Source of the DNA: a virus
Virus record (IMG/VR): IMGVR_UViG_3300042863_002274
DNA length: 64,000 bases
Reading direction: 5' to 3' (one strand)
The number at the start of each line of letters is the position of its first letter. Within the stretch, counting starts at the first letter, position 1. The position numbers were made by a program, and so were the translations under genes. The notes below the pieces were generated by a model. It had not been told where the DNA came from and ran no database searches. It saw nothing but the letters and a program-made list of their open reading frames with translations. This document shows, piece by piece, positions 13,016-53,708 of the stretch.

Positions 13016-14799
13016 TGGCTATTCAGATTCAATTTAGACGTGGCACCGCCGCAGAGTGGACGGCTGCAAACCCAACGCTTGCTGTAGGTGAACTCGGCGC
13101 AGAAACCGATACAGGTAAATTCAAGGTAGGTACCGGTACAACTGCTTGGACTTCTCTTGCCTACAGTTCTGGACCTCAAGGTGTCAGTGGTGTTTCCGGA
13201 GTCAGTGGAGTTTCTGGAGTTTCTGGCGTCAGCGGTGTTATTGGTGCTACTGGTCCACAAGGTGTAAGCGGAGTCAGTGGTGTAAGTGGTGTCATAGGTG
13301 CAACGGGAGCGACTGGTCCTACGGGAATTCAAGGCGTTTCTGGAGTTTCCGGAGTATCTGGTGTTTCGGGCGTTTCTGGAGTATCGGGTGTCAGTGGAGT
13401 AATCGGAGCAACGGGCGTTTCTGGAGTTTCAGGGGTGTCGGGTGTTTCTGGTGTCTCTGGAGTTAGTGGCGTATCGGGCGTAAGCGGAGTTTCTGGTGTT
13501 CCTGGAGCACAAAACGCTCACGCATCTGTCGTAACAGTTCAAGACACGCAAGACGCAAGTACTTACTTTGCTGGAACTGCAGATGCAAGTGAAGGCTTTG
13601 GTATTGGTGCCTACATTGAAGCAAATGCTAATGGTGCTATTTCTACAGTCGGCGGAGCAACAATCATTGTTGGTGACCGTGTTCTTTTTTCGGGAAGAAC
13701 AAATAAAGTTGAAAACGGTATTTACACCGTAACCAGTCTCGGTTCGGCGGGTTCTAAATTTAAGTTCACTCGCGCAACTGACTTTGATAACAGTATTGCT
13801 GGCGAAGTTGAAAACGGAGACTTTACTCTTGTTGCTCAAGGTGACCATGCAGGTCAAACGTTCATTCAAACGAATTACGGAACTGCTGCTGGCGGTGCTA
13901 TTAAAATCGGCACAGACCTAATTGAGTTCGCAGAAACCGGCGGTATCGGACCAGTGGGTCCGACAGGTCCTCAAGGCGTATCGGGCGTAAGCGGTGTTAG
14001 CGGAATTTCAGGAGTCTCAGGAGTCTCTGGAGTATCTGGTGTTAGCGGTGTTTCGGGCGTGAGTGGCACGACAGGTGCGACTGGTCCAACAGGACCAACA
14101 GGACCAACGGGCGTAACAGGACCAACAGGACCTATAGGAATTACAAGTTCTGCAACTGCACCAGTATCACCAACTGCTGGTCAAGTTTGGTTTGACACAA
14201 CTACCGGTTCTTCGTACATCTACTACAACTCTGCTTGGGTTGAACTAGGTGGCGGTGCAATGTCGCCACTACCAGTTACTTCGTCTACTCGTCCATCTGC
14301 ACCGTGGGAAGGTCAGACGATTTATGAGACTGACACAGACCTTCTCTATTTATACAGTGGCTCAGCGTGGGTTGAGGTTGTTTCTGCGCTAACCAAGGCA
14401 CCACGAGGTGTTGTGGCTTTAGCCAACATTACAAGCAACATAACAAGTAATGGCAGTACTGAAGTAACACGGGCTAGCGTCACATGGACTGCGGTTGCAA
14501 ATCGTTACTACAAAATAACATGGGTAGAGGGAAAAGTAGATAACGGCGTAAATGCGTCAGTAAACAACCATTACCTAAGAACCGCTACTACTAGCGGAAC
14601 AATTATTGCAAATACATTAATTTATTACCCTTCCGCAAGCCTTCAACAGGGCAGCGTTTGTAGTTGTGTTACAACTTTTGCAGCAGGTACGCAAACTGTA
14701 TTTGCTCGTGTGGTGTCCAATGCAGCCACAAACACAACATGGAAAGCGTCAGCAACAGAACCTGCGTATTTACTGGTTGAAGATATTGGTGGTGTTTAA
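13012..14799 (+). CDS. Collagen-like fibre protein with Mtd_N/hyaluronidase-like N-terminal domain
   Basis: [36 protein letters not shown]-terminus; GVS repeats. Confidence 0.75.
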
Positions 14800-15563
14800 T
14801 GTCAGCGATTACTTTTCCTGCTTCTCCGTATCAATATCAGATTTTTACTATTGGCCCTAAGAGTTGGCAATGGGACGGTTATGTATGGAACGCTTACTTC
14901 AACGAAAGCGTTGACTCCATCTACGGAACAGGTGCTGACGGTGATGCCACCTTAGACGGAACAACAACAGTCTTAAGCATGGTTCCATCTGCGAGCGTTT
15001 ACTCCATGACGCGAGATATGTATTTTAACGATTTGACATTGGGCAACAGCGTTCGTCTGGCCCCTAACGGTTACAGAATCTTTGTTAAGGGAACCTTACG
15101 TTTTGGTACAAGTTCTATTGTTGGCTTTACGACTGGATACGCATCTTTGGGTTCAATCATGCAAGGTGGAGCAGCAACTACGTCAGTGACACACAGTCTT
15201 GGCGGTAACGCAACTGCAACCTATACAGCCACTGCGCCTCATGCAACAATGGGTGGACTTGGTTACTTCAAACAACCAATGCAGGCAATCACTGGATACA
15301 CCATAACGGCAACAGGAGGACCTATGTTCCTTCGTGGAGGCGCTGGTAGTACTGGACAGGCAGGTGGCGGAGTTGTCATCCTTGCTGCTCGTTACATCAG
15401 CGGTCCATCATCTGGAACTGGATATATTCAAGCACCAGCAACTGCACCCGCTGGTGGTGGCGTCATACTCATAGTCTCTTCCGCAAGCGCACTCCCTGGT
15501 ACTATCTCAACAGATGTAACCGGAGCAAACGCTGGAACTGTAAATTACATTCAGCAGGTCTAA
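14799..15563 (+). CDS. Gly-rich structural protein
   Basis: ITFPASP module; YGTG.DGD..RDMY.N.LT domain shared with next gene; GGGVILI motifs. Confidence 0.6.
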   Translation: MSAITFPASPYQYQIFTIGPKSWQWDGYVWNAYFNESVDSIYGTGADGDATLDGTTTVLSMVPSASVYSMTRDMYFNDLTLGNSVRLAPNGYRIFVKGTLRFGTSSIVGFTTGYASLGSIMQGGAATTSVTHSLGGNATATYTATAPHATMGGLGYFKQPMQAITGYTITATGGPMFLRGGAGSTGQAGGGVVILAARYISGPSSGTGYIQAPATAPAGGGVILIVSSASALPGTISTDVTGANAGTVNYIQQV

Positions 15564-15565
15564 CT

Positions 15566-17317
15566 ATGGCAATTTCAAGAATTGAGAACATTGTTGTTCG
15601 TTCAGGAAATGACGCTGTTTACGGAACAGGCACCGATGGCGATGTGACCATCAGCGGAACCGTAACCCTTACTAGGGACATGTACTACAACACACTGACC
15701 GTTCCTTTAGGAAACATTCTTCTTACTTCGGGTTTTAAAGTGTTCGTCAAAGGCGCTGCAATCATCAACGGTGTTGTCGGTATTGGTGACGTCACTGGCA
15801 ATACTGCTGGCTCCAGCAATGGAACAATCGCCAGTACTGCCTCTGCTGTTTTAACAGGAACGCTTTCTGGTCATACTTCTGGTGCTATTACCTACCGACT
15901 GGGTGGACAAGGCGGAGGAAACACCAACCCAAACGTCAGTGCTCTTCCTACGTACCTTCTTAAAAGCGTCACTTCAATGCTTGGTGGCGCAATTATTGAC
16001 GCTGTTTACGGCCCTACACCTATTGCGTTAGCAGGAGGTTCTAGTGGAACTACAGGTGCTTCGGGTGTTGCGGGTTCTTCAGGAGCAACCGGAGCAACAG
16101 GGGCAACAGGAATTGCTGGAGCCACAGGACTTACAGGAGCCACAGGAATCGCAGGAGCAGTAGGAGCAACAGGGGTTGCAGGAACCGCAGGCGGACATCC
16201 TAGTGACGGATTAACGGTAGGCGCGGCTGGTGGCAGAGGAGCATCTGGCGCAAGCGGCGCTTCTGGAGCACGGGGAGCATCTGGCGCAAGCGGCGCTTCT
16301 GGAGCACGAGGAGCAAGCGGAGCACAGGGAGCATCTGGCGTCCTTGGTGCAGGCGGTGTTGGTGGAGTTGGCGGAATGGGTGGACCGGTAGTCGCTATTA
16401 TTGCCAAGAATATTTCGGGAACCGGAACAGTTATGTCTCTTGCCATGATTGGTGCTGTTGGTGCTACTGGCGTTGCGGGCGCTTCGGGTGCTTCAGGCGC
16501 TTCTGGAACCACGGGCGCAACAGGAACCACGGGAGCCACGGGAACCACGGGTGCAACCGGAGTTACTGGTGCTGCCGGAACAAAAGCCCCCGACTACACG
16601 GTTACTCCCCATTCGGCTACTCCAACTCATATAAACAATGGCCACCATGGGACTCCGTATCATACGAACAATGGCCATGTTGCAAGTGGTCACCATGTTC
16701 CCAATGGTCACCATCACACCCCTGGTGGACACCATACGGTTCACCATACGACTCATCACCACGTAAACCATACGCATACAGTAAACCCACACCACCATTG
16801 CTGCGACTCGCACGACCCTAAGAATGGTTATTATGCAGGTCACACGGTTAATGGTGGACACCACCATGTGGGGCATCACCATACTGCCGGTGGTCATACG
16901 GGTCACCACGTACACCCACACCACACAACACATCCACATACAAATGTGCACACAAATCCTCATCACCAGCAGCACGTAAACCCTCATTCCCCTTCTCATG
17001 CAACCCATGTCGCCAATGCAACTGTTCATTATGTTGGAGGGGCTGGAGGGGCTGGAGGTGCTGGAGGTGCTGGGGGCGCAGGAGGGGCAGGGGGCGCAGG
17101 AGGCGCTGGAGGCGCTGGAGGCACAGGCGGTGCAGGAGGCGCTGGAACTACAGGCGCAAGCGGAGTAAGAGGCGGAGCAGGTGGTGGTGGTGCTATTCTT
17201 ATCTTGACAGAAACTACACCGTCTGGATTGTCCTACGATGTGCGCTCTGGCACCACAGCAGCATCCGACACTCATACGGCTTCTTCTGGAACCACTTATA
17301 TCCTTCTTAACGCTTAA
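15566..17317 (+). CDS. Gly-rich/collagen-like virion protein with ~140-aa His-rich insert
   Basis: GAT/GAS repeats, His-rich region 16610-17029 with central HHHCCDSH, followed by (GAG)n repeats. Confidence 0.7.
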   Translation: MAISRIENIVVRSGNDAVYGTGTDGDVTISGTVTLTRDMYYNTLTVPLGNILLTSGFKVFVKGAAIINGVVGIGDVTGNTAGSSNGTIASTASAVLTGTLSGHTSGAITYRLGGQGGGNTNPNVSALPTYLLKSVTSMLGGAIIDAVYGPTPIALAGGSSGTTGASGVAGSSGATGATGATGIAGATGLTGATGIAGAVGATGVAGTAGGHPSDGLTVGAAGGRGASGASGASGARGASGASGASGARGASGAQGASGVLGAGGVGGVGGMGGPVVAIIAKNISGTGTVMSLAMIGAVGATGVAGASGASGASGTTGATGTTGATGTTGATGVTGAAGTKAPDYTVTPHSATPTHINNGHHGTPYHTNNGHVASGHHVPNGHHHTPGGHHTVHHTTHHHVNHTHTVNPHHHCCDSHDPKNGYYAGHTVNGGHHHVGHHHTAGGHTGHHVHPHHTTHPHTNVHTNPHHQQHVNPHSPSHATHVANATVHYVGGAGGAGGAGGAGGAGGAGGAGGAGGAGGTGGAGGAGTTGASGVRGGAGGGGAILILTETTPSGLSYDVRSGTTAASDTHTASSGTTYILLNA

Positions 17318-17332
17318 CAAAACGGAGAAATC

Positions 17333-17560
17333 ATGGAATTCAACTTAACTACAGAGCAAAAAATCAAATCACTGGGCGACACCAAGAAGCATATGCTGAA
17401 CGAGGTGTATGGACTCCTTGTAGGACTAGGGATTGACCCTGACGAATTTGACGCAACGACATGGGTTCCCGCAGAACCACCAACAGGCAATGAAGCACGA
17501 GTAACGTCATTGTTGACAAACATCGCACGTGCAGATGCAAAAATTGCTGCACTGTCTTAA
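17333..17560 (+). CDS. Small hypothetical protein, possible partner of the His-rich protein
   Basis: GGAG RBS; 75 aa helical; directly downstream. Confidence 0.6.
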   Translation: MEFNLTTEQKIKSLGDTKKHMLNEVYGLLVGLGIDPDEFDATTWVPAEPPTGNEARVTSLLTNIARADAKIAALS

Positions 17561-17570
17561 AAGGTAAAAA

Positions 17571-18650
17571 ATGAGCGACATTTCGCTGATAGAAATAGCA
17601 AACTATAAGTGCTATTACGGCATTGACGGCACGGCTGATTTCAAGTTGTACACCCCAACGCCTAGTGGAAACATTGAATATACGGAATATGACACGTTTA
17701 CTTCGGATGGAAAGACGATTATTGCCTTTAAAGAACTAGACCCTTACTCTGGTGATTTTAACTATGTTCTTGTCCGTAATAACCAAGAGTCAATCATTGA
17801 CGCTATTTGCTATGACGACATCTTAGAGCACTTTGTTAAAGACTCCATCAAAGAAGAAGACATGTATTGCGTGATGTCTTCCAAGGTAATGACACCTGCT
17901 ACGGCCAGTAAAGACGCCGTAGATTTTATGGACCGTTGTGACGCAGGAAAATATGGACCCGTTCAGTTTCCCTTAGAAGATGGGGTGCGCCCTACAGTGA
18001 CAGACACTGTTTTGTTTCAACACATTAGTAAAGTAACAGTAATGCTTGGTGCTGCCGGTGTTGCTCATGTTGTATATGGTTTCATACCCGGTGTTAATGA
18101 TTCCTTTAGGGATTGGCCTGCTGTAACTGCTGTTACAAAAACCCCTATGGGTCTAATGAAACTCATTATTGAATGGGCATCCCTAACAGAGAGTCCATTT
18201 GATAGCGATAATGAAGTTTCTTTAGCATGTAAAAATTATATTGAAACTCTTCAGATACCAGAAAACGTGCTAAACGAGATATCTGAATATCAGGAAGATA
18301 TGCCTGTTTACAGATACTTTCAAAATCAAGAAAATACGCGACATGGTTTTACGGAGCAGGCCAGCGTCGGCCCCTTATTTTTGAACTGGGTAAAGAGTAC
18401 TCACCGATACAGAACACTAAATGCTTTGGTGCACAACCATCCTTCTCCGCCCGTTGTGCCAGAAGAAATACTTTCCTCGGAACGACAACACATTGAATCA
18501 AAAATATACGAAATATGCATTAAGTATGGTATAGAGTCGTCTTTGTCTCCACTAGAAATATTGGAGCAAATTCCGCCCTTCACTGACTTGACGCTAAGTC
18601 AGTGGATTCTTGAAGTTAACTACATCAAGTCTTACATAGCATATTCTTAG
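17571..18650 (+). CDS. Hypothetical protein (359 aa)
   Basis: Long ORF with AAGGT RBS inside the operon; no family recognised. Confidence 0.6.
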   Translation: MSDISLIEIANYKCYYGIDGTADFKLYTPTPSGNIEYTEYDTFTSDGKTIIAFKELDPYSGDFNYVLVRNNQESIIDAICYDDILEHFVKDSIKEEDMYCVMSSKVMTPATASKDAVDFMDRCDAGKYGPVQFPLEDGVRPTVTDTVLFQHISKVTVMLGAAGVAHVVYGFIPGVNDSFRDWPAVTAVTKTPMGLMKLIIEWASLTESPFDSDNEVSLACKNYIETLQIPENVLNEISEYQEDMPVYRYFQNQENTRHGFTEQASVGPLFLNWVKSTHRYRTLNALVHNHPSPPVVPEEILSSERQHIESKIYEICIKYGIESSLSPLEILEQIPPFTDLTLSQWILEVNYIKSYIAYS

Positions 18651-18656
18651 GTAAAA

Positions 18657-20153
18657 ATGAATAACAATTTATCATTCTGCATTGTCGGTTCAGGAACTGC
18701 CGGATTGGTTTCTGCCTTATTGCTTCGGAGAGCATTTGTTAATTCTGAAATTACAATAATCTCTTCTTCCAAAATAGGAATTATTGGCGTTGGTGAAGGC
18801 TCTACAGAACACTGGCGTGAGTTCATGAACGACTGCGACATTCCAACTGGTGAACTTATTGAGAACACGAGCGCAACCCATAAGTATGGTCTCCGTTTTG
18901 AAAACTGGACAACTCATACCCCTGACTATTTTCACAGCATTGGTGGAGTGGACGAAATATTTGCGCATGGTTTGTTTGCTACCTATGCTGGGTTTGTTGA
19001 CTCCAATAAACTAATTACTTCTCAGACGGGGAGTGCGGGTCTTGTGCAGAACAAAATTGGTAGACGAAACATCCACAAGACAACAAATCAGTTTCATTTT
19101 GATACAAATAAACTAAACGACTATTTAACAGGACTATGTTTTGCGAGAATGATTAAATTCATTGATGCAGAAGTTAACTCAATAGAACTTGATTCAGAAA
19201 CTGGAGAAATATCTTCAGTAACAACAGAACAGCAAGCAGTTGTTTCTGCTGATTTTTGGATTGATGCCAGTGGTTTTTCCAGAGTTCTTATGACAAAACT
19301 AGGAAACACTGAATGGGAGTCTTTTTCCCCGTATCTTCTTTGTGATTCAGCAATTGCTTTCCCAACAGAGTCTGACCCTAATGGACAGATTCGCCCATAC
19401 ACCCGAGCCAGGGCAGCATCTTCTGGGTGGATGTTTGAAATACCAACGCAAGAACGTCGTGGTAACGGTTACATCTTCTCTTCTTCTCACATATCTGTAG
19501 ATAAGGCTATTGAAGAAGCGCAAGCGATGACTGGATATAAGGTCCCAGAAAATCCTAAAACTTTTAAATACGATGCAGGTTTCTTAAAAAACCAGTGGGT
19601 GAAAAACTGTGTCTCTGTAGGCCTTGCTTCCTCGTTTGTTGAACCCCTGGAAGCCACCAGTATCGGCAGTACTTTAATTCAATTAAAAATGCTTATTCAG
19701 AACGTCGCTTCATATACTAAAAAATCATCAAAAATGCAGATTGCGTACAATAAAACGATTACTGAAACAATGCGTAATATACTGACAATGATTAGGTTGC
19801 ATTACGTTTCCGATAGGCGAGACTCACAATTTTGGATTGACCAATCTGAGATGCCTCTTAATGATGAACTTCAAGAACTAATTGATTTATGGTCTGAAAA
19901 AGTTCCATCCAGGTATGACCATTACCAAGAGATAAACCTAATGTTTCATGTACCTCATTTAGTTCACGTTATGCAAGGCCAAGGGCTTTTACCAAAAGAA
20001 CCATCTTCGCTTGCCCTTGATAGACTAAACCTGCGACAAAAAGTCAATTTGGAAATGGACAACTTTAGGAACTCCAGGCACAATCACGAGTTGGTTGACC
20101 ATAAAGATGGATTGTTAGAAATTCAAAACTTAGACGAGGAATACGAGCAGTGA
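18657..20153 (+). CDS. Flavin-dependent halogenase family protein (tryptophan halogenase-like)
   Basis: GSGTAG, IGVGEG, ATHKYGLRFENW (catalytic Lys position), IDASGF, WMFEIP, FVEPLEATSI motifs. Confidence 0.85.
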   Translation: MNNNLSFCIVGSGTAGLVSALLLRRAFVNSEITIISSSKIGIIGVGEGSTEHWREFMNDCDIPTGELIENTSATHKYGLRFENWTTHTPDYFHSIGGVDEIFAHGLFATYAGFVDSNKLITSQTGSAGLVQNKIGRRNIHKTTNQFHFDTNKLNDYLTGLCFARMIKFIDAEVNSIELDSETGEISSVTTEQQAVVSADFWIDASGFSRVLMTKLGNTEWESFSPYLLCDSAIAFPTESDPNGQIRPYTRARAASSGWMFEIPTQERRGNGYIFSSSHISVDKAIEEAQAMTGYKVPENPKTFKYDAGFLKNQWVKNCVSVGLASSFVEPLEATSIGSTLIQLKMLIQNVASYTKKSSKMQIAYNKTITETMRNILTMIRLHYVSDRRDSQFWIDQSEMPLNDELQELIDLWSEKVPSRYDHYQEINLMFHVPHLVHVMQGQGLLPKEPSSLALDRLNLRQKVNLEMDNFRNSRHNHELVDHKDGLLEIQNLDEEYEQ

Positions 20154-20893
20154 AAAAGAAAAAGTCGGTCAAACCAGGACATATCAGAGTAACGCCAGAA
20201 GATAACCGCTTAATGGAGATGCCTCCATATTTAAACTCGCAATTATCAATGCCTAAATGGTACAAGACAATGCCTAGTGGTGCTGGTTTGAAAAAGTGTG
20301 CAGGCGTTAATGACTACCTAGCAGCGGGAATGACTGTTCCTCTTTGGAGCAATCTGTATTTCAGGCCAAACCCAGAAAATGGATTCTGGGAATCACGCAT
20401 TGAAAATATGAGCCCACCACTTGAAAATATTGGGGTACAGGGTTTCTCTGTTCAAGACACGCCTGGATGCCCTGTTGTCGGAGTTCGCAAACTTGAAAAT
20501 ATGCAATATCCAAAAATTGTAACTCCGTGGCGTTTTGAGACTGCACCTGGGTGGTCTTCTTTGATACTTCCCATTTCGTGGGAGCCAAGTCAGAACTATG
20601 ATGTTTTGCCGGCAATTGTTCATACTGATTTTTATCATGTAACCAATATTGTTTTAAACATAAAAGCCAACACGGACTTTATGATTCCATACGGAACACC
20701 AATGATGCAGGTAGTTCCGTTTAAACGAAGCACTAATCTTTCATCCATTGAGTTTGAAGACGAATCTTATTTTAAGTATGTTGCGAGTAGTGGCTTTGGT
20801 TCCGGATACATCATGCCGTCACTAGGCACCGCAGGACCGTATAGACGCCACAAGCATAAAGTTGATATTGAACTAGCCAAAAAAGAAAAATAA
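20150..20893 (+). CDS. Conserved phage protein, DUF6065-like
   Basis: KKCAGVNDY..G..VPLW, PW.FET.PGWS.L, LPAIVHTD, GTPMMQVVPFKR pattern. Confidence 0.5.
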   Translation: MKKKKSVKPGHIRVTPEDNRLMEMPPYLNSQLSMPKWYKTMPSGAGLKKCAGVNDYLAAGMTVPLWSNLYFRPNPENGFWESRIENMSPPLENIGVQGFSVQDTPGCPVVGVRKLENMQYPKIVTPWRFETAPGWSSLILPISWEPSQNYDVLPAIVHTDFYHVTNIVLNIKANTDFMIPYGTPMMQVVPFKRSTNLSSIEFEDESYFKYVASSGFGSGYIMPSLGTAGPYRRHKHKVDIELAKKEK

Positions 20894-21474
20894 TGCAAGT
20901 ACTCCACCCTTCATTATGGGTTTATGACAAATTGTTGAAAGAACCTCAAATCATTATTGACTCTATAGAAAAAGCAATAGACGATGACGTTTCTTTAAAT
21001 TGGGAATATGCCAGTACGTATGAAGACAGAAACGAACCGAGCATTCAAAACCTTTACCGAAGCAACAAGAGCCTGCCATTGGCAAGCACTATTATGGTCC
21101 GTGACGACATACAAAAACTTGATGAATATATTTTTAACGCAGTAACTGGGGCTACTTCAGAATATGCCGACCATCATAATTTAGGCGGTTTGTTTGATGA
21201 AGGGTATTTTGTTTTAAAATACGAAAAGGGAACAGAATATAAGCAGCACTTTGATTGCGGTGGTGCTCATAAAAACAGAGTGCTATCTATGATTGCTTTT
21301 TTAAATGACGATTTTGAAGGAGGAAAACTAGAGTTCCCAACTTTGGGAATAACATACGAGCCATCTGCTGGCGATGTTGTTTTTTTCCCTTCTTGTTATT
21401 CATTCCCGCATATCGTCCACCCCGTAAGTGAAGGTGTTAGGTACTCTCTTGTGACATGGCTCTCTTATGAGTAA
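20893..21474 (+). CDS. 2OG-Fe(II) oxygenase, prolyl-4-hydroxylase-like
   Basis: HFD..FLNDDFEGGKLEF..FFPS..H.V.PV..GVRYSLVTW. Confidence 0.85.
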   Translation: MQVLHPSLWVYDKLLKEPQIIIDSIEKAIDDDVSLNWEYASTYEDRNEPSIQNLYRSNKSLPLASTIMVRDDIQKLDEYIFNAVTGATSEYADHHNLGGLFDEGYFVLKYEKGTEYKQHFDCGGAHKNRVLSMIAFLNDDFEGGKLEFPTLGITYEPSAGDVVFFPSCYSFPHIVHPVSEGVRYSLVTWLSYE

Positions 21475-22045
21475 GACAAGAGATTTTCTTTTAGACAACT
21501 ATGTTCACGTACCTGATTTTGTAGACGCCTCGGTTGTCTCTCTTGTGTCAAAATATGCACTCTTAAAAGAAGCGTATTCTTTTAGCCCGGACACAGCACA
21601 GGTAATTAACGCCCATGCCGTTTATGCGGACTTCCTAATGGAGTCTCTGCTTCTTGATTACAAAGAAAAAGTGGAAGAAGTCACGGGGTTGTCACTAATC
21701 CCTACATACTCTTTTTACAGGGTCTACAGGCGTGGTCAGGAACTGGCCCCACATATAGACAGACCTGCTTGCGAAATCTCTGTAAGTGTCTGCTACGAAT
21801 ACAACTATCGCCGCAAGGATTATGAATGGCCTCTCGTCATGGGAGATACTCCAGTCGTAATGAAACCGGGTGACGGCGCTATCTACAGGGGGATGGACGT
21901 CAACCACTTCCGACCCGTATTCAACGTCCCCCAAGATTCCTACCATATTCAAGGTTTCTATCATTACGTAGACGCCAATGGTCCCTGGACTAGCCATGCG
22001 TACGACAAAAAGGAAAACTCTCATTTAAATCTTTTAGGGTATTAA
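21467..22045 (+). CDS. 2OG-Fe(II) oxygenase family protein
   Basis: PTYSF.RVY..G..L..HIDRPACEIS..GDGAIYRG...HFR HxD...H facial triad. Confidence 0.75.
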   Translation: MSKTRDFLLDNYVHVPDFVDASVVSLVSKYALLKEAYSFSPDTAQVINAHAVYADFLMESLLLDYKEKVEEVTGLSLIPTYSFYRVYRRGQELAPHIDRPACEISVSVCYEYNYRRKDYEWPLVMGDTPVVMKPGDGAIYRGMDVNHFRPVFNVPQDSYHIQGFYHYVDANGPWTSHAYDKKENSHLNLLGY

Positions 22046-22198
22046 AGATGAGTCACAGCAGGCGAGTAGATAACCACTACCTTCCAAACACTAAAGAAGG
22101 AAACGACAAGTTCTGTTGGTGGTTGCATTGGTTTGGCGGTCACGACCAATTTATAATTTTAATACATTTAATTAATTTAGAGAAACAATACAAAAAAA

Positions 22199-22483
22199 AT
22201 GCTAAACAAAGTAATACAAGCAACGAAGACGATGTCTCACAAGGGGTATTGGACTAAACCAAACATCGTAGAGGCTTGGGGGTTTTCTACCAAAATTGCC
22301 ATCATCTTCCCTGGCCTGCTTCTTGGCTACCAGTGGTGGTGGGTTTACATCTTCGCCATCGCTTCAAGCATCGCCCTCATTTGGTCATCTACCGAAAAGA
22401 CGCTTCCAACAATTATTCTCTTCAATGTGGCTTGGGTTATCCTGGCGAGTCTTTCAATCATTAAGCACTTCTGGTGGGTTTAG
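22199..22483 (+). CDS. Small membrane protein
   Basis: Three hydrophobic segments, Trp-rich. Confidence 0.6.
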   Translation: MLNKVIQATKTMSHKGYWTKPNIVEAWGFSTKIAIIFPGLLLGYQWWWVYIFAIASSIALIWSSTEKTLPTIILFNVAWVILASLSIIKHFWWV

Positions 22484-22494
22484 AATAAATTTTT

Positions 22495-23244
22495 ATGCTG
22501 CCTAATATGCTCGTAGTTCAATGCAGGGGAAATCAGTTTCTTATCTTTGATAAGCCCGACGTAATCAGTGACGGACTTCGGTCAGGTGCTGGTCATGACG
22601 CATGGCTGGAATATTATTCAACAATCCTGGTTGGAGACAACAAGGACGGAGTAATCCTAGATATCGGCAGCAATGTCGGAACTTATGTTGTTCCTTTGGC
22701 TAAACAATTCCCCGGTATTGAGTTCTACGGTTTTGAACCACAGAGGATAGTTTTCTATCAGTTGTGCGCCAACCTTGTCCTGAATGGATTAGAGAACGTT
22801 TACCCCATCAATAAAGGACTCGGAGATGCCGCGTTCGAAATAGAGATGTCAACTCCTGATTATTCCGTTGAAGTAAATATTGGCGCTTTCAGTCTGGATG
22901 CTGGCGTTCACGAGAACAACAATCAGTGCGCCAGTCAGGGCAAGATGGAAAAGATACAGATTGACCGACTGGATAATTACGAATTTCAGAACATCAGACT
23001 CATCAAGATAGACGTTGAGGGTCTTGAGTTTGCAGTCATCAAGGGCGGCCTAGAAACCCTCAAGGCAAACAACTACCCACCTATCATCTTTGAGACGTGG
23101 AGCATTATGGACTGGTATCAAGAACGACGCAAGGAGATTATTTCCTATGTTGAGTCTCTTGGCTACGACATCACCTCAATTGGGGACAACTGCATCGCAC
23201 AGCACACAAGCCGAAAAGTCATTCAGTGGGCCAGAACCCAATAG
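22495..23244 (+). CDS. FkbM-family methyltransferase
   Basis: LDIGSNVG, FEPQ, LIKIDVEGLEFAVIKG, IIFE motifs. Confidence 0.85.
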   Translation: MLPNMLVVQCRGNQFLIFDKPDVISDGLRSGAGHDAWLEYYSTILVGDNKDGVILDIGSNVGTYVVPLAKQFPGIEFYGFEPQRIVFYQLCANLVLNGLENVYPINKGLGDAAFEIEMSTPDYSVEVNIGAFSLDAGVHENNNQCASQGKMEKIQIDRLDNYEFQNIRLIKIDVEGLEFAVIKGGLETLKANNYPPIIFETWSIMDWYQERRKEIISYVESLGYDITSIGDNCIAQHTSRKVIQWARTQ

Positions 23245-23268: not shown

Positions 23269-24639
23269 ATGGCTATTGATTTTCCAAACTCCCCCTCACC
23301 AGGAGCATTGTTTACGGCCAACTCCAAGACGTGGACATTCACTGGAGGCAAATGGGTTCTTAACGTCAGCACGGTCGGCGTGGTTGGTCCAACTGGGCCA
23401 ACCGGATTAACTGGGGCAACCGGACCTGCGGGCGGTCCAACCGGAGCAACCGGGCCAACTGGACCAACCGGTATTGGCGCAAGCGGTCCAAGCGGGCCAA
23501 GCGGAGTTTCGGGGGTAAGTGGGGTTTCGGGGGTTAGTGGTGTTTCTGGTGTTTCTGGTGTAATTGGTGCGACTGGTCCAAGCGGCGCAACTGGACTAAC
23601 GGGCGCTACGGGCCCAGCTGGTGGGCCGACTGGCCCGTCTGGCCCGACTGGAGCAACAGGGGTTGCGGGTGTTGTCATTCAGGGAACAGCTCCTACGGTT
23701 TTCGACGTTCTTTGGGCGGATACTTCAGTTGCTGGAGTGGCTGTAGTTCCTGCCGGTGGAACAACGGGTCAAATGCTGGCGAAGTCTTCGTCTGTTAGTT
23801 ACGACACGGCATGGGCTACGCCGGTCACTTCTTCTGATTTAGCACTAAAAGCCAACCTTGCAGGTCCCACTACTTTTACAGGAACCGTAACTCTTCCAAC
23901 TGGAACCGTTGCCACAACTCAGAGCGCCGGGAACAACACAACTGCCGTTGCAACCACAGCGTTTGTAACTCAAGCGATACCTACGGGAGTAATAAATCCA
24001 TACGCAGGTTCTACGGCACCAACAGGTTGGTTGCTTTGCTACGGACAAGCGGTATCTAGAACAACTTATGCTGCATTGTTCGCTGTTCTTTCAACTACCT
24101 ACAATACTGGTGTCGTAGCAGGAACGGATTTCTGTCTCCCTGACCTTCGTGGTCGTACGGTTGCTGGTATTGACAACATGGGCGGCGTGGATGCCAACCT
24201 TTTGAGTATTGCAAATACACCAGGAACAACGACTGGTGCTGAAACAGTTACTTTGACTTCTGCACAATCAGGAGTTCCTACTCACTCTCATGCCAACACA
24301 TTGACGGGTACGACAACTTTTGCTTCTAGCGGACACGCTCACGGTGCGGGTAGTCTGACCGCTGCTATTGGTGCTACTAATAACAACCCAAACAGAATCG
24401 GCTATATTGCAGGAACAGTAACTGGTCCAGGGACAGCAACATACTCAATTGAGGCCGGTGGTCTATTGACCGGTACGGGAAACTTTAACCACTACACGCC
24501 TGTGTACGGCGATACGGGTGGCCCCAACGCGACAGGGACTGTTGGTATCACAAATGTTGATAATACCGCCGCAAATGCTTCATCGGCTCATAACAACATG
24601 CAGCCTACAATGGTTCTTAACTACATTATAAAGTCTTAG
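23269..24639 (+). CDS. Collagen-like tail fibre with tail-collar domain
   Basis: IDFPNSP module, Gly-X-Y runs, [38 protein letters not shown] collar, HSH/HAH motifs, [15 protein letters not shown] end. Confidence 0.85.
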
Positions 24640-26265: not shown

Positions 26266-26439
26266 ATGACAAAAACTGCTGATAGATTTTGGGACAAAGT
26301 AGATATCGGCTCTCGTGAGGAGTGCTGGGTTTGGAAAGCATCTGTCGGTTGGGGCGTGAGCGTTATGCAAGAAATAAAGTATGATGACAATGCCAAAACA
26401 AAAACAAGAGAATGGGGAAAAACTTGCGCTTCCACGTAG
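26266..26439 (+). pseudogene. Remnant of HNH homing endonuclease (N-terminal fragment)
   Basis: MTKTADRFWDKVDIGSREECWVW resembles the N-terminus of phage HNH endonucleases; no HNH core follows; stops after 57 aa. Confidence 0.5.
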
Positions 26440-52021: not shown

Positions 52022-52579
52022 TTATCTGTCAGGATTGGGGGGTCTTTCGATAGAGACCGTAGATGACTCTAGTGAGCCAGGCGGAGCCTCAATAGGAATC
52101 CATGCTCTGGCGTAATTGTGCTCTTTAATTTTTCTCACTTTATAGAGACTTCCGTCAAGCATTAGAGAGAGTTCTTCCGAACGCATGCAAAGCATGTCTT
52201 CAAAATCTGAAATACCGTATTTACCAGAACGTCTAAGTGTTCGGATTATGTCTGATGTTTTAGGAGCCAACACATGGGAGTGTCCCCTATTGAGCCGAAG
52301 GTGCATCATCATGGCGTCCATTTTGTCAACGTCGTGGTACACGACCGGTATTTTTCCATCGCTCATAGCAAGAATTTGCGGAATATTTGTTGCCAGCAAG
52401 TATCTTTCCGAGCCGTCGATTATTTCCCCAGTGGCAAGCCTGACGTGTATCGGCTGAATGAAGCCAAACTGAGACAAGGAGGCAGAGATAACAAGCATCT
52501 CTGGACGCAGGGTGTAGGTAGCTTTCCATTCAGGAACAGAAAGCAGGGACGGTTCAACGTATTCGATTTTAATATTCAT
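52022..52579 (-). CDS. ParB/Srx-like domain protein (IbrB-like)
   Basis: SL.QFGFIQPI.V..IIDG.ER..HLRLNRG. Confidence 0.75.
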   Translation of the reverse strand: MNIKIEYVEPSLLSVPEWKATYTLRPEMLVISASLSQFGFIQPIHVRLATGEIIDGSERYLLATNIPQILAMSDGKIPVVYHDVDKMDAMMMHLRLNRGHSHVLAPKTSDIIRTLRRSGKYGISDFEDMLCMRSEELSLMLDGSLYKVRKIKEHNYARAWIPIEAPPGSLESSTVSIERPPNPDR

Positions 52580-53708
52580 AGATATCTGCTCTTTCTAGTT
52601 CTAGCGCTCGCACAGCATGAGCGCGAGTTTTGGGACCCACAGGGGTCGGTGAATTAACGTCAATATCATTAAGCATTAAGTTTCTTATCAACCAGCTGAC
52701 TGGATATCCATGAGGGTCACCAAGATGTTTTTTTCTAAATTTTGAAACATAAACACGAGCCTCCGTCTTTCGCCTATCACCTATCAGGTACTTGTCGATA
52801 AACGCAGACGCCCCATCAAATCCTCTTCGCGCATAACTTTCTATGAGTTTTTCTGAATCGAAATCAGCCCATAAGCGTCTTTGAGCGTCTATGTAAGGAA
52901 AGCAATCAAACAGTCTGTCATAAAATTCCGGTTCAGTAGCAACCACATCACCTATTCTGCGAATTGCCGTAGCATGAAGTGGAATACCGACCCTCGTATT
53001 GCTCCCTGTGGTTACGGCCAGGTCGTAGTACTCGCAATACTCAGCGTCATGCTCTTCAATAATGAACTTAAATACATCATTTGTATTCCAGTCATATATT
53101 ATTTTTGCAAACTTTAACGGGATTCCCTTTTTCAACTTATATGGGATATTGATGTAGTTCTCATGAAGCTTTTGAACCACGGAGCGATAACGAACCATTG
53201 ATTCACTGGCTCTAACACCAGTCAGGAAAGCTACGTTCCCCCTTTTTCCCTGCATTGTGTAATAGTCCGTCTGTTCAGGAAGAGAAACTTCATGAGTTAA
53301 ACCAAAATGCTTACCACTAATAGCCCATGGAGGCATCGGCCTAACCCATCTATCTTGTTCGAATCTTTGCTGGCTCCACAAAATAGTAGTAAGCCTATGA
53401 CCCAAAAACCATATCTCTGCAGGATAAGGAAGGCAGTACCACTCCATATCCACCCAGTCGTAGTTGCGAACCTTTTCCACGTACTTTACGACAGTGGGAC
53501 TGACCATCTCTTCGTCTCGAAAGATTACCTTTACCGGACCAAGGCCTCGCTCTTCATGTATTTCTTTTGCTAGATACAGAATCGCAGTGGAGTCTTTCCC
53601 TCCAGAGAACTGTACGCAGACAGTGTCGAAAGTGTCGTAGACGTGCCGTATTCTCTGTCTTGCAGCGTCAACGCAGGACATATCAAGAAATAGGCGCTGA
53701 CGAGTCAT
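52569..53708 (-). CDS. PAPS reductase/PP-loop family protein (IbrA/DndC-like)
   Basis: AARQRI..VQFSGGKDS PP-loop, F.DEE, GVRASES..R, IYDW motifs. Confidence 0.85.
   Translation of the reverse strand: MTRQRLFLDMSCVDAARQRIRHVYDTFDTVCVQFSGGKDSTAILYLAKEIHEERGLGPVKVIFRDEEMVSPTVVKYVEKVRNYDWVDMEWYCLPYPAEIWFLGHRLTTILWSQQRFEQDRWVRPMPPWAISGKHFGLTHEVSLPEQTDYYTMQGKRGNVAFLTGVRASESMVRYRSVVQKLHENYINIPYKLKKGIPLKFAKIIYDWNTNDVFKFIIEEHDAEYCEYYDLAVTTGSNTRVGIPLHATAIRRIGDVVATEPEFYDRLFDCFPYIDAQRRLWADFDSEKLIESYARRGFDGASAFIDKYLIGDRRKTEARVYVSKFRKKHLGDPHGYPVSWLIRNLMLNDIDVNSPTPVGPKTRAHAVRALELERADIYEY

Follow-up and report, generated by a model that had tools for sequence, protein, structure and literature searches.

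The stretch of viral DNA analysed here (IMG/VR record IMGVR_UViG_3300042863_002274; 64,000 nucleotides, referred to at its full length as the window) encodes a collagen-like, glycine-rich fibre with a histidine-rich insert, followed by a flavin-dependent halogenase, a DUF6065-like protein and a 2-oxoglutarate (2OG)-Fe(II) oxygenase that resembles prolyl 4-hydroxylases (P4Hs). The catalytic motifs of the enzymes are intact, and the linkage of this gene set to the fibre is invariant among relatives and has been re-created repeatedly. In our judgement, it is an even call that the window holds a conserved fibre-maturation module, which acts on or with the Gly/His-rich fibre. The core of such a module would comprise the fibre together with a paralogue and a small partner, the P4H-like oxygenase, the halogenase and the DUF6065-like protein.

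Linkage of the fibre and the core enzymes

Searches of IMG/VR with the halogenase, a 359-amino acid (aa) protein encoded just upstream of it and a profile of the DUF6065-like protein yielded more than 100 loci. The neighbourhood counts were made on 48 distinct loci, each extending at least 6.5 kb beyond the DUF6065-like gene on its upstream side. All 48 loci have an upstream fibre that is Gly-rich and contains 17-43 His per 100 aa, the halogenase gene is located 0-66 bp upstream of the DUF6065-like gene in 47, and a homologue of the first oxygenase is present within 4.5 kb in 43, preceding the halogenase in most loci and following it in others. The gene-neighbourhood search suggested in the original prediction, which had been made from the window alone, thus finds the fibre, halogenase, DUF6065-like protein and P4H-like oxygenase together across the clade. 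In addition, a 254-aa paralogue of the fibre is encoded immediately upstream of it in 47 of the 48 loci, and the gene for a 75-aa protein (p75) that follows the fibre is detectable by BLAST in 37. The usual order is paralogue, Gly/His-rich fibre, usually p75, P4H-like oxygenase, halogenase and DUF6065-like protein; the positions of the oxygenase and 359-aa genes vary among loci, and the gene set stays together. Since the core recurs in 48/48 distinct related contigs, the arrangement is not due to chance. The gene order first described in the window is real, and all of its open reading frames (ORFs) were found on the + strand. Universality of this kind looks like that of a core phage function, not of a sporadic metabolic gene.

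Distant relatives binned in metagenome-assembled genomes (MAGs), with a halogenase identity of 43-47%, keep the order of paralogue, Gly-rich fibre, oxygenase, halogenase and DUF6065-like protein, although the His density of the fibre goes down to 7-12 per 100 aa. Moreover, two relatives, L066 and L067, each possess a tandem pair of complete modules, in both of which the seven genes come in the same order and all ORFs are intact. The two copies are deeply diverged, sharing 47% identity between the halogenases and 34% between the DUF6065-like proteins, and each has its own paralogue, fibre, small protein, oxygenase, halogenase and DUF6065-like protein. In the second module, the fibre is a variant rich in Gly, Asn, His and aromatic residues, and G-N-P-G sites are numerous in it.

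A comparable arrangement recurs in Kyanoviridae, where it spans four genera of T4-like cyanophages. In P-TIM40, S-RIM44, Sf-CH3 and S-SZBM1, one to three tandem fibre-like proteins of ~250 aa with a Gly_rich_2 domain (PF21722), all carrying conserved His and Tyr, are followed by a protein of 135-180 aa and then by one or two halogenases. A DUF6065-like gene comes after the halogenase in P-TIM40, S-RIM44 and Sf-CH3, and 2OG, JmjC_2 or cupin genes come next in P-TIM40, Sf-CH3 and S-SZBM1; in S-RIM44 and Sf-CH3 the block stops just before the neck genes. Phylogenetic analysis of the halogenases revealed two deep clades, one containing the lineage of the window and the other the enzymes of these four cyanophages, so that fibre-linked halogenases occur in both. 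Another phage, HTVC008M, has a Gly-rich protein adjoining a cluster of four oxygenases. The main text of the S-SZBM1 virion proteome paper names neither the glycine-rich proteins nor the enzymes among the virion proteins.

The JmjC_2 family (PF08007) is the ribosomal-oxygenase type of protein hydroxylase, and a "hypothetical protein" of Synechococcus phage Sf-CH3 (L120:24782-25477) belongs to it with an E-value of 1e-19. A further JmjC enzyme, gp49 of phage Syn9, has been placed in the MINA/No66 clade (Iyer et al., PMC2938197).

Altogether, several observations argue for a link between the fibre and the enzymes. The linkage is invariant in the clade, is duplicated with a fibre of its own in each copy, and recurs with the other halogenase clade in Kyanoviridae. 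The first oxygenase is closest to prolyl 4-hydroxylases that act on proteins, and the cyanophage clusters include JmjC_2 enzymes. The gene junctions in the window are tight or overlapping, ranging from an 8-bp overlap to a 24-bp gap, and a promoter and terminator scan within the block gave no signal above the shuffled expectation. Moreover, the second DUF6065-like copy of one relative directly follows a (PHFP)n-repeat protein, as described below. Precedents exist both for collagen-like and tail-collar proteins as oxygenase substrates (PMC2938197) and for fibres that bind iron through HxH motifs (PMC11705849).

Table 1. Features of the fibre and enzyme block. Coordinates refer to the window, except for the last row, which gives those of the relative L066.
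Feature	Coordinates	Strand	Basis
254-aa structural protein, paralogue of the fibre N-terminal domain	14799..15563	+	alignment
583-aa collagen-like Gly-rich fibre with His-rich insert, proposed substrate or client	15566..17317	+	Pfam Collagen PF01391, tail-fibre PHROGs
75-aa protein (p75) with G[IL]DPDxFD motif	17333..17560	+	alignment, synteny
359-aa protein without family, accessory	17571..18650	+	synteny
Flavin-dependent halogenase, core	18657..20153	+	PF04820
DUF6065-like protein, dUTPase-type beta-barrel fold plus C-terminal helix, core	20150..20893	+	phrog_7084, model
P4H-like 2OG-Fe(II) oxygenase, core	20893..21474	+	2OG-FeII_Oxy_3 PF13640
Second 2OG-oxygenase-like protein, accessory	21467..22045	+	phrog_2954, HxD...H...R
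94-aa hydrophobic (membrane) protein	22199..22483	+	sequence, synteny
FkbM-family methyltransferase, accessory	22495..23244	+	PF05050
Next fibre, collagen repeats plus tail-collar domain	23269..24639	+	PF07484, PF01391
Tandem modules of L066	4929-10780 and 14344-20742

Components of the block and flanking genes

The fibre matches the collagen family (PF01391) with an E-value of 8e-12, in addition to several tail-fibre PHROGs. Its insert (approximately residues 342-496) has 47 His in 155 aa and contains nine HxH motifs, 13 Pro, five Tyr, no Trp and one Cys-Cys pair. The composition of the insert is kept across 56 related fibres (26% H, 14% G, 8% P and 4% Y), each of which possesses 3-22 HxH motifs. 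The 254-aa protein shares 42% identity with the N-terminus of the fibre (BLASTP, E = 6e-12); neither this protein nor the 359-aa protein had a tblastn match in 50,697 phage records. The divergence of p75 tracks that of the fibre C-terminus (rho = 0.64), and we infer that p75 is a fibre chaperone or assembly factor. It shows no similarity to the small protein encoded in the second L066 module, or to a 76-aa ORF located behind the 1083-aa fibre upstream. Some relatives encode a tail-collar fibre directly after the module, the C-terminal region of which in L057 (11128-12147) is full of HxH motifs (AHTHG, SHTHG, NHNHS, SHTHT and AHTHT) and resembles the metal-binding T4-type fibres.

The halogenase matches PF04820 with an E-value of 8.5e-102 (341.8 bits, cut-off 21), and the match spans positions 3-452 of the 458 in the profile. 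Among solved structures, 6frl is the nearest (E = 5e-57), and VirX1 (6qgm), a halogenase of viral origin, also matches; the nearest solved relatives are enzymes of the free indole or tryptophan type. The motif GSGTAG (residues 11-16), K76 in ATHKYG and the segment FVEPLEAT are all invariant in an alignment of relatives, and provide the GxGxxG motif for flavin adenine dinucleotide, the catalytic Lys and the FxEPLE Glu by which a flavin-dependent halogenase is recognized. K76 and the Glu of FVEPLEAT presumably correspond to K79 and E346 of PrnA. The WxWxIP motif reads GWMFEIP in the window, with the second Trp replaced by Phe, and mostly GWxWEIP in the relatives; the only invariant residues within this region are G257, W258, I262 and P263. 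In Synechococcus phage S-H38, which also encodes a halogenase, an unannotated ORF (L001:14811-15098) is found 5 kb downstream of the halogenase, in a gap of the deposited annotation; its product has an N-terminus resembling a signal peptide, and its tail contains ~28 His per 100 aa.

The first oxygenase matches PF13640 with an E-value of 1e-15 (58.9 bits, cut-off 27). Its best matches among solved structures are the prolyl 4-hydroxylases of Bacillus anthracis (3itq and 5hv0, E = 1e-8), followed by P3H1, PiuC and other prolyl hydroxylases, including 4iw3, which we take to be a bacterial prolyl hydroxylase acting on EF-Tu. In the alignment, H119-x-D121 is nearly invariant and H173 invariant, which gives the iron triad, and a Lys or Arg in a "[KR]YSLVTW" motif provides the basic residue for binding 2OG. 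The match to Tet_JBP is far under the cut-off, at 17.3 against 34.9 bits. The second oxygenase-like protein belongs to phrog_2954 (E = 4e-42) and has the invariant residues H96-x-D98, H147 and R149; it gave no sequence match in Pfam or the PDB. Its family is homologous to a gene of HTVC008M, and is named "ferrochelatase", a misnomer, both there and in PHROGs.

The DUF6065-like gene overlaps the stop codon of the halogenase gene by 4 bp. The protein (phrog_7084) has no Pfam match even at E <= 10, and the PF19541 model was not matched. Its predicted structure, with a predicted local distance difference test (pLDDT) score of 75, has a template-modelling (TM) score of 0.82 to a viral ESM-Atlas cluster, 11% of whose members carry PF19541. 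The label "DUF6065-like", given in the original prediction, therefore holds at the level of the fold, not of a sequence match to PF19541. The top 22 VIA-align matches of the model (Z-scores of 6.0-9.0) are all folds of the dUTPase/dCTP-deaminase superfamily, comprising dUTPases, dCTP deaminases and viral dUTPase-related proteins, and Foldseek gave an E-value of ~3e-4 to the dUTPase-type folds. At the sequence level, no dUTPase family was matched in Pfam (E <= 10) or NCBIfam (E <= 0.01). The DUF6065-like family has 160 metagenomic clusters of near length that carry no Pfam domains, on contigs of up to ~200 kb. A search for longer, fused forms of the protein found none, which is weak evidence. 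In the relative L034 (19019-20172), a 129-aa protein with about twelve PHFP/PFFP repeats at its end precedes, by 20 bp, a second DUF6065-like copy, far from the halogenase of that locus; the repeat protein may be a second His/Pro-rich client of the DUF6065-like family.

Several of the remaining genes of the block are less constant. The original prediction described a system of nine genes; the core gene set is indeed linked, whereas three other members are sporadic, with the 359-aa gene in 14 of the 48 loci, either before or after the halogenase, the second oxygenase gene in four and the FkbM gene in one. The 359-aa protein matches no family in Pfam, PHROG or NCBIfam; its model is poor (pLDDT of 49), and its ESM Atlas leads are all sub-threshold. 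Two small ORFs that overlap each other, one of them hydrophobic, are located between the phrog_2954 and FkbM genes. The hydrophobic 94-aa protein, part of a conserved flank downstream of the module, is 70-98% identical across the clade, above the halogenase at 55-94%, and its gene usually adjoins that of a GT4 glycosyltransferase, which in the window lies at 26412. The FkbM protein matches PF05050 with an E-value of 7e-11 (42.9 bits against a cut-off of 22.7). Compared to the window, L056 and L024 have an FkbM protein of 90%, a membrane protein of 97% and a GT4 protein of 95% identity, and a halogenase of just 60%; FkbM directly adjoins GT4 in both. In view of this near-identity beside a halogenase of 60% and of the contact between FkbM and GT4, we regard the FkbM protein, the membrane protein and the glycosyltransferase on the flank as a block of their own, for glycan decoration.

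The + strand from 7.1 to 27.5 kb is a single run of co-directional genes, with collagen-like fibre genes on both flanks of the block (9382, 13012, 23269, 24652 and 25482), the one at 23269 placing the module inside a run of fibre genes. The G+C content is 0.395-0.42 across the enzyme genes (18001-22000) and 0.46-0.52 in the flanking fibre genes. Elsewhere in the window, a gene on the - strand (52569-53708) encodes a protein resembling the reductase of 3'-phosphoadenosine-5'-phosphosulfate (PAPS) (phrog_2302, E = 6e-77); Iyer et al. (2010, PMC2938197) tied PAPS metabolism in bacteria to collagen-like proteins that are hydroxylated and then sulfated. A megablast search of the block against the 50,697 phage records found no close relative. 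The portal shares ~43% identity with the portals of phages of Gordonia and Brevibacterium, its closest matches, and both portal and sheath match non-T4 PHROGs. The module was also found on one small contig of an Actinomycetota MAG (RHAS01000028.1) and on two contigs of a Gammaproteobacteria MAG (PBNR01000003.1 and PBNR01000075.1). These contigs are probably phage-derived and give weak hints to the host; the actinophage-like portal agrees with the Actinomycetota hint.

Possible targets of the enzymes

From the gene content and its context, we infer the substrate and every chemical step as follows. The enzyme genes are probably co-transcribed with those of the fibres. During infection, the oxygenase would hydroxylate the His/Pro/Asn/Tyr-rich insert of the fibre, most plausibly at Pro. 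The halogenase, using reduced flavin supplied by the host, would halogenate electron-rich side chains, namely Tyr, Trp in relatives and possibly His, with the DUF6065-like protein as its putative partner in an accessory role. The dense HxH-type histidines would probably bind metal ions, as in T4 gp37. The chances that the target of the enzymes is a virion protein appear to us equally balanced. That a structural protein of a phage is halogenated and hydroxylated by enzymes, with the dedicated halogenase, the P4H-like oxygenase and the dUTPase-fold partner tailoring the His/Pro/Tyr-rich insert of the fibre into a metal-loaded, chemically hardened or receptor-tuned tip, is a possible but doubtful extension.

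A number of points weigh against a module that matures the fibre. What stands of the original claim that the enzymes modify the neighbouring fibre is the linkage, seen in all 48 loci, in the two modules of L066 and L067 and in Kyanoviridae, together with the likeness to P4Hs; every claim of modification itself is drawn from gene context. The 48 loci are all relatives, and their synteny is one inherited arrangement, not 48 independent events. Identities to the window correlate weakly between the fibre ends and the enzymes (rho = 0.2-0.4) and better within the fibre and p75 and within the sub-block of oxygenase, halogenase and DUF6065-like protein (rho = 0.6-0.8), so that the sub-blocks recombine as separate pieces. 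Co-divergence of fibre and enzymes had been expected, and this argument was dropped. Profile comparison of the 254-aa paralogue family with the cyanophage Gly_rich_2 family scored them as unrelated (probability of 0.2%, E = 0.27), indicating that the two kinds of glycine-rich fibre are analogous; homology is not supported.

The chemistry also raises objections. The His-rich insert of the window, with no Trp and only five Tyr, has few classical target residues of a halogenase or a collagen P4H, and we know of no flavin-dependent halogenase that acts on His. The collagen repeats are of the G-A-T and G-A-S type with almost no X-Pro-Gly sites. Possibly the insert is an HxH segment that binds metal without the help of any enzyme. 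The fold of the DUF6065-like protein is that of nucleotide-binding dUTPases, and its homologues in Sf-CH8 and in HF2-type haloviruses occur without a halogenase, the neighbours in HF2 being a ribonucleotide reductase and a DNA methylase. The halogenases of the sister clade of the window halogenase (P-SSM2, S-H38 and L035) and of S-MbCM6 lie among nrd, denV, psbA and hli genes and have no such fibre adjacent. Occurrence of the enzymes away from such fibres, which the original prediction had named as the ground for giving it up, is thus found in part, in P-SSM2 and S-MbCM6.

The related halogenases of P-SSM2 and S-MbCM6, which lie among metabolic genes, are also an argument for a different target, that is, for an island that tailors small molecules or surface glycans, as in the view taken of the phage Syn9. 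Within the infected cell, such an island would serve to build or decorate a metabolite or polysaccharide carrying halogen and hydroxyl groups, and would occupy a permissive, inherited site behind the fibre gene. The published view of such clusters is secondary metabolism or capsule decoration, as Iyer et al. proposed for the halogenase and dioxygenase arrays of cyanophages in 2010 (PMC2938197) and 2021 (PMC7824862). The free indole or tryptophan type of the nearest solved halogenases and the VirX1 match fit the same view, as do the weak covariance of fibre and enzymes and the glycosyltransferases and FkbM gene close by. However, every member of the clade has the enzymes (48/48), in contrast to the patchy occurrence of sporadic metabolic genes, and the duplicated module retains one enzyme set per fibre. 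Moreover, Pfam and PHROG scans of the block found no scaffold-building genes, that is, nonribosomal peptide synthetase, polyketide synthase, carbamoyltransferase or amino-acid-activating genes, and halogenases of the other clade occupy the same position, behind genes for glycine-rich fibres, in a second phage family. We therefore consider a tailoring island rather unlikely.

Proteins of the host are a third candidate target. The oxygenases and the halogenase might modify, for example, translation factors or ribosomal proteins for takeover of the cell, and their adjacency to the fibre would then be incidental. In line with this, the first oxygenase matches 4iw3 with its presumed EF-Tu target. 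The JmjC_2 proteins of the cyanophage clusters are of the ribosomal-oxygenase family (MINA/No66 clade, PMC2938197). Nevertheless, the position of the genes within a co-directional fibre run without an internal promoter signal fits late expression better than expression for takeover, each fibre of the duplicated module has its own enzyme set, and nothing points to a particular host protein, making this quite an unlikely explanation. That nucleotides or DNA are the target, on which the halogenase, the oxygenases and the dUTPase-fold protein would create a new base modification, is highly improbable: the fold match (Z-score of up to 9.0) and the HF2 neighbours speak for it, but no dUTPase family is matched by sequence even at E <= 10, the first oxygenase is of the P4H type with a Tet_JBP score far below the cut-off, the genes are found among fibre genes instead of replication genes, and dUTPase-fold proteins without nucleotide activity exist, such as the herpesvirus tegument proteins among the fold matches.

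Weighing these explanations, we retain the module that matures the fibre as our preferred reading. To our knowledge, few "auxiliary" genes of aquatic phages are more common than those of halogenases and 2OG oxygenases. A module inseparable from one unusual fibre offers a small and clean test system, consisting of the fibre, the halogenase, one or two oxygenases and one partner. Should the fibre prove to be what the enzymes act on, hydroxylation and halogenation would join the known chemistry of virions, with a bearing on host recognition, particle stability and the metal bound by phage particles in water, and a natural substrate class would be identified for the VirX1-type viral halogenases and the 2OG-oxygenase arrays of cyanophages. 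The modified fibre would also be a viral counterpart of the marine sponge skeletons, which contain halogenated tyrosines and histidines (PMC8659048), and of the worm jaw protein Nvjp-1, which is His-rich and binds zinc (PMC9465683). Should the enzymes act on something else, it would still have to be explained why they occur throughout the clade.

Comparison with known systems

Viral halogenase and 2OG-oxygenase genes have been treated as metabolic or DNA-repair genes (PMC2938197, PMC7824862, PMC9146016), and our literature search found no direct report of His-rich fibres with halogenases, of hydroxylation or halogenation of phage fibres, or of DUF6065 in this role. The original prediction likened the block to the clusters of ribosomally synthesized and post-translationally modified peptides. 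Those clusters that have peptide-acting flavin halogenases share with it the order of a gene for a ribosomal substrate followed by those of tailoring enzymes. However, the candidate substrate here is a structural protein of 583 aa, and Pfam and PHROG scans found no leader/core precursor, recognition element or protease among the ten ORFs, so that the analogy fails on its defining features, the short leader/core precursor and the protease.

Other parallels involve collagen-like or fibrous proteins. Bacterial collagen-like and tail-collar proteins have been proposed as substrates of co-encoded 2OG dioxygenases (PMC2938197). Similar to the window, these operons of beta-hydroxylase and PhyH dioxygenases place a collagen-like or tail-collar protein beside 2OG dioxygenases, whereas they are bacterial, carry sulfotransferases and PAPS synthetases, and lack a halogenase; they are also predictions only. 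The collagen P4Hs, including that of Bacillus anthracis, are the best match of the first oxygenase, which keeps their HxD...H iron triad. By contrast, the fibre of the window is nearly without X-Pro-Gly, and has its Pro residues in the His-rich insert. As for the fibre itself, HxH motifs of T4 gp37 and of marine phage fibres bind iron (PMC11705849, citing Bartual et al. 2010). Like the T4 gp37 needle, the fibre of the window, presumably also trimeric, has repeated HxH motifs, nine in its insert and up to 22 in relatives. Compared to T4 gp37, however, its His density is far higher (~30% over 155 aa), and the segment, known here from its sequence, lies between collagen-like and Gly-rich runs.

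The known system with this enzyme set is the cluster of Syn9/Syn10-type phages. Syn9 has an array of ten dioxygenases with associated halogenases, for which organohalogen secondary metabolism was proposed (Iyer et al. 2010, PMC2938197), and a ten-gene cluster of cyanophages was interpreted by Iyer et al. (2021, PMC7824862) as making secondary metabolites or decorating the capsule. Both the Syn9-type cluster and the window have a run of tryptophan-type halogenase and 2OG-Fe(II) dioxygenase genes in a phage. With one halogenase and two oxygenase-like genes within 3.4 kb, the block of the window has the neighbours by which a Syn9-type cluster is recognized, and it has homologues in Kyanoviridae; the DUF6065-like gene and the oxygenase family named "ferrochelatase" are common to the window and marine T4-like phages. 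The version in the window differs in being minimal, with no JmjC match in the block (Pfam), in belonging to a phage that is not T4-like, and in being locked to a very His-rich collagen-like fibre; in addition, the published reading of the Syn9-type cluster is secondary metabolism, not virion modification. Taken together, these features identify the module of the window as a new, minimal and non-T4 version of the known Syn9-type cluster.

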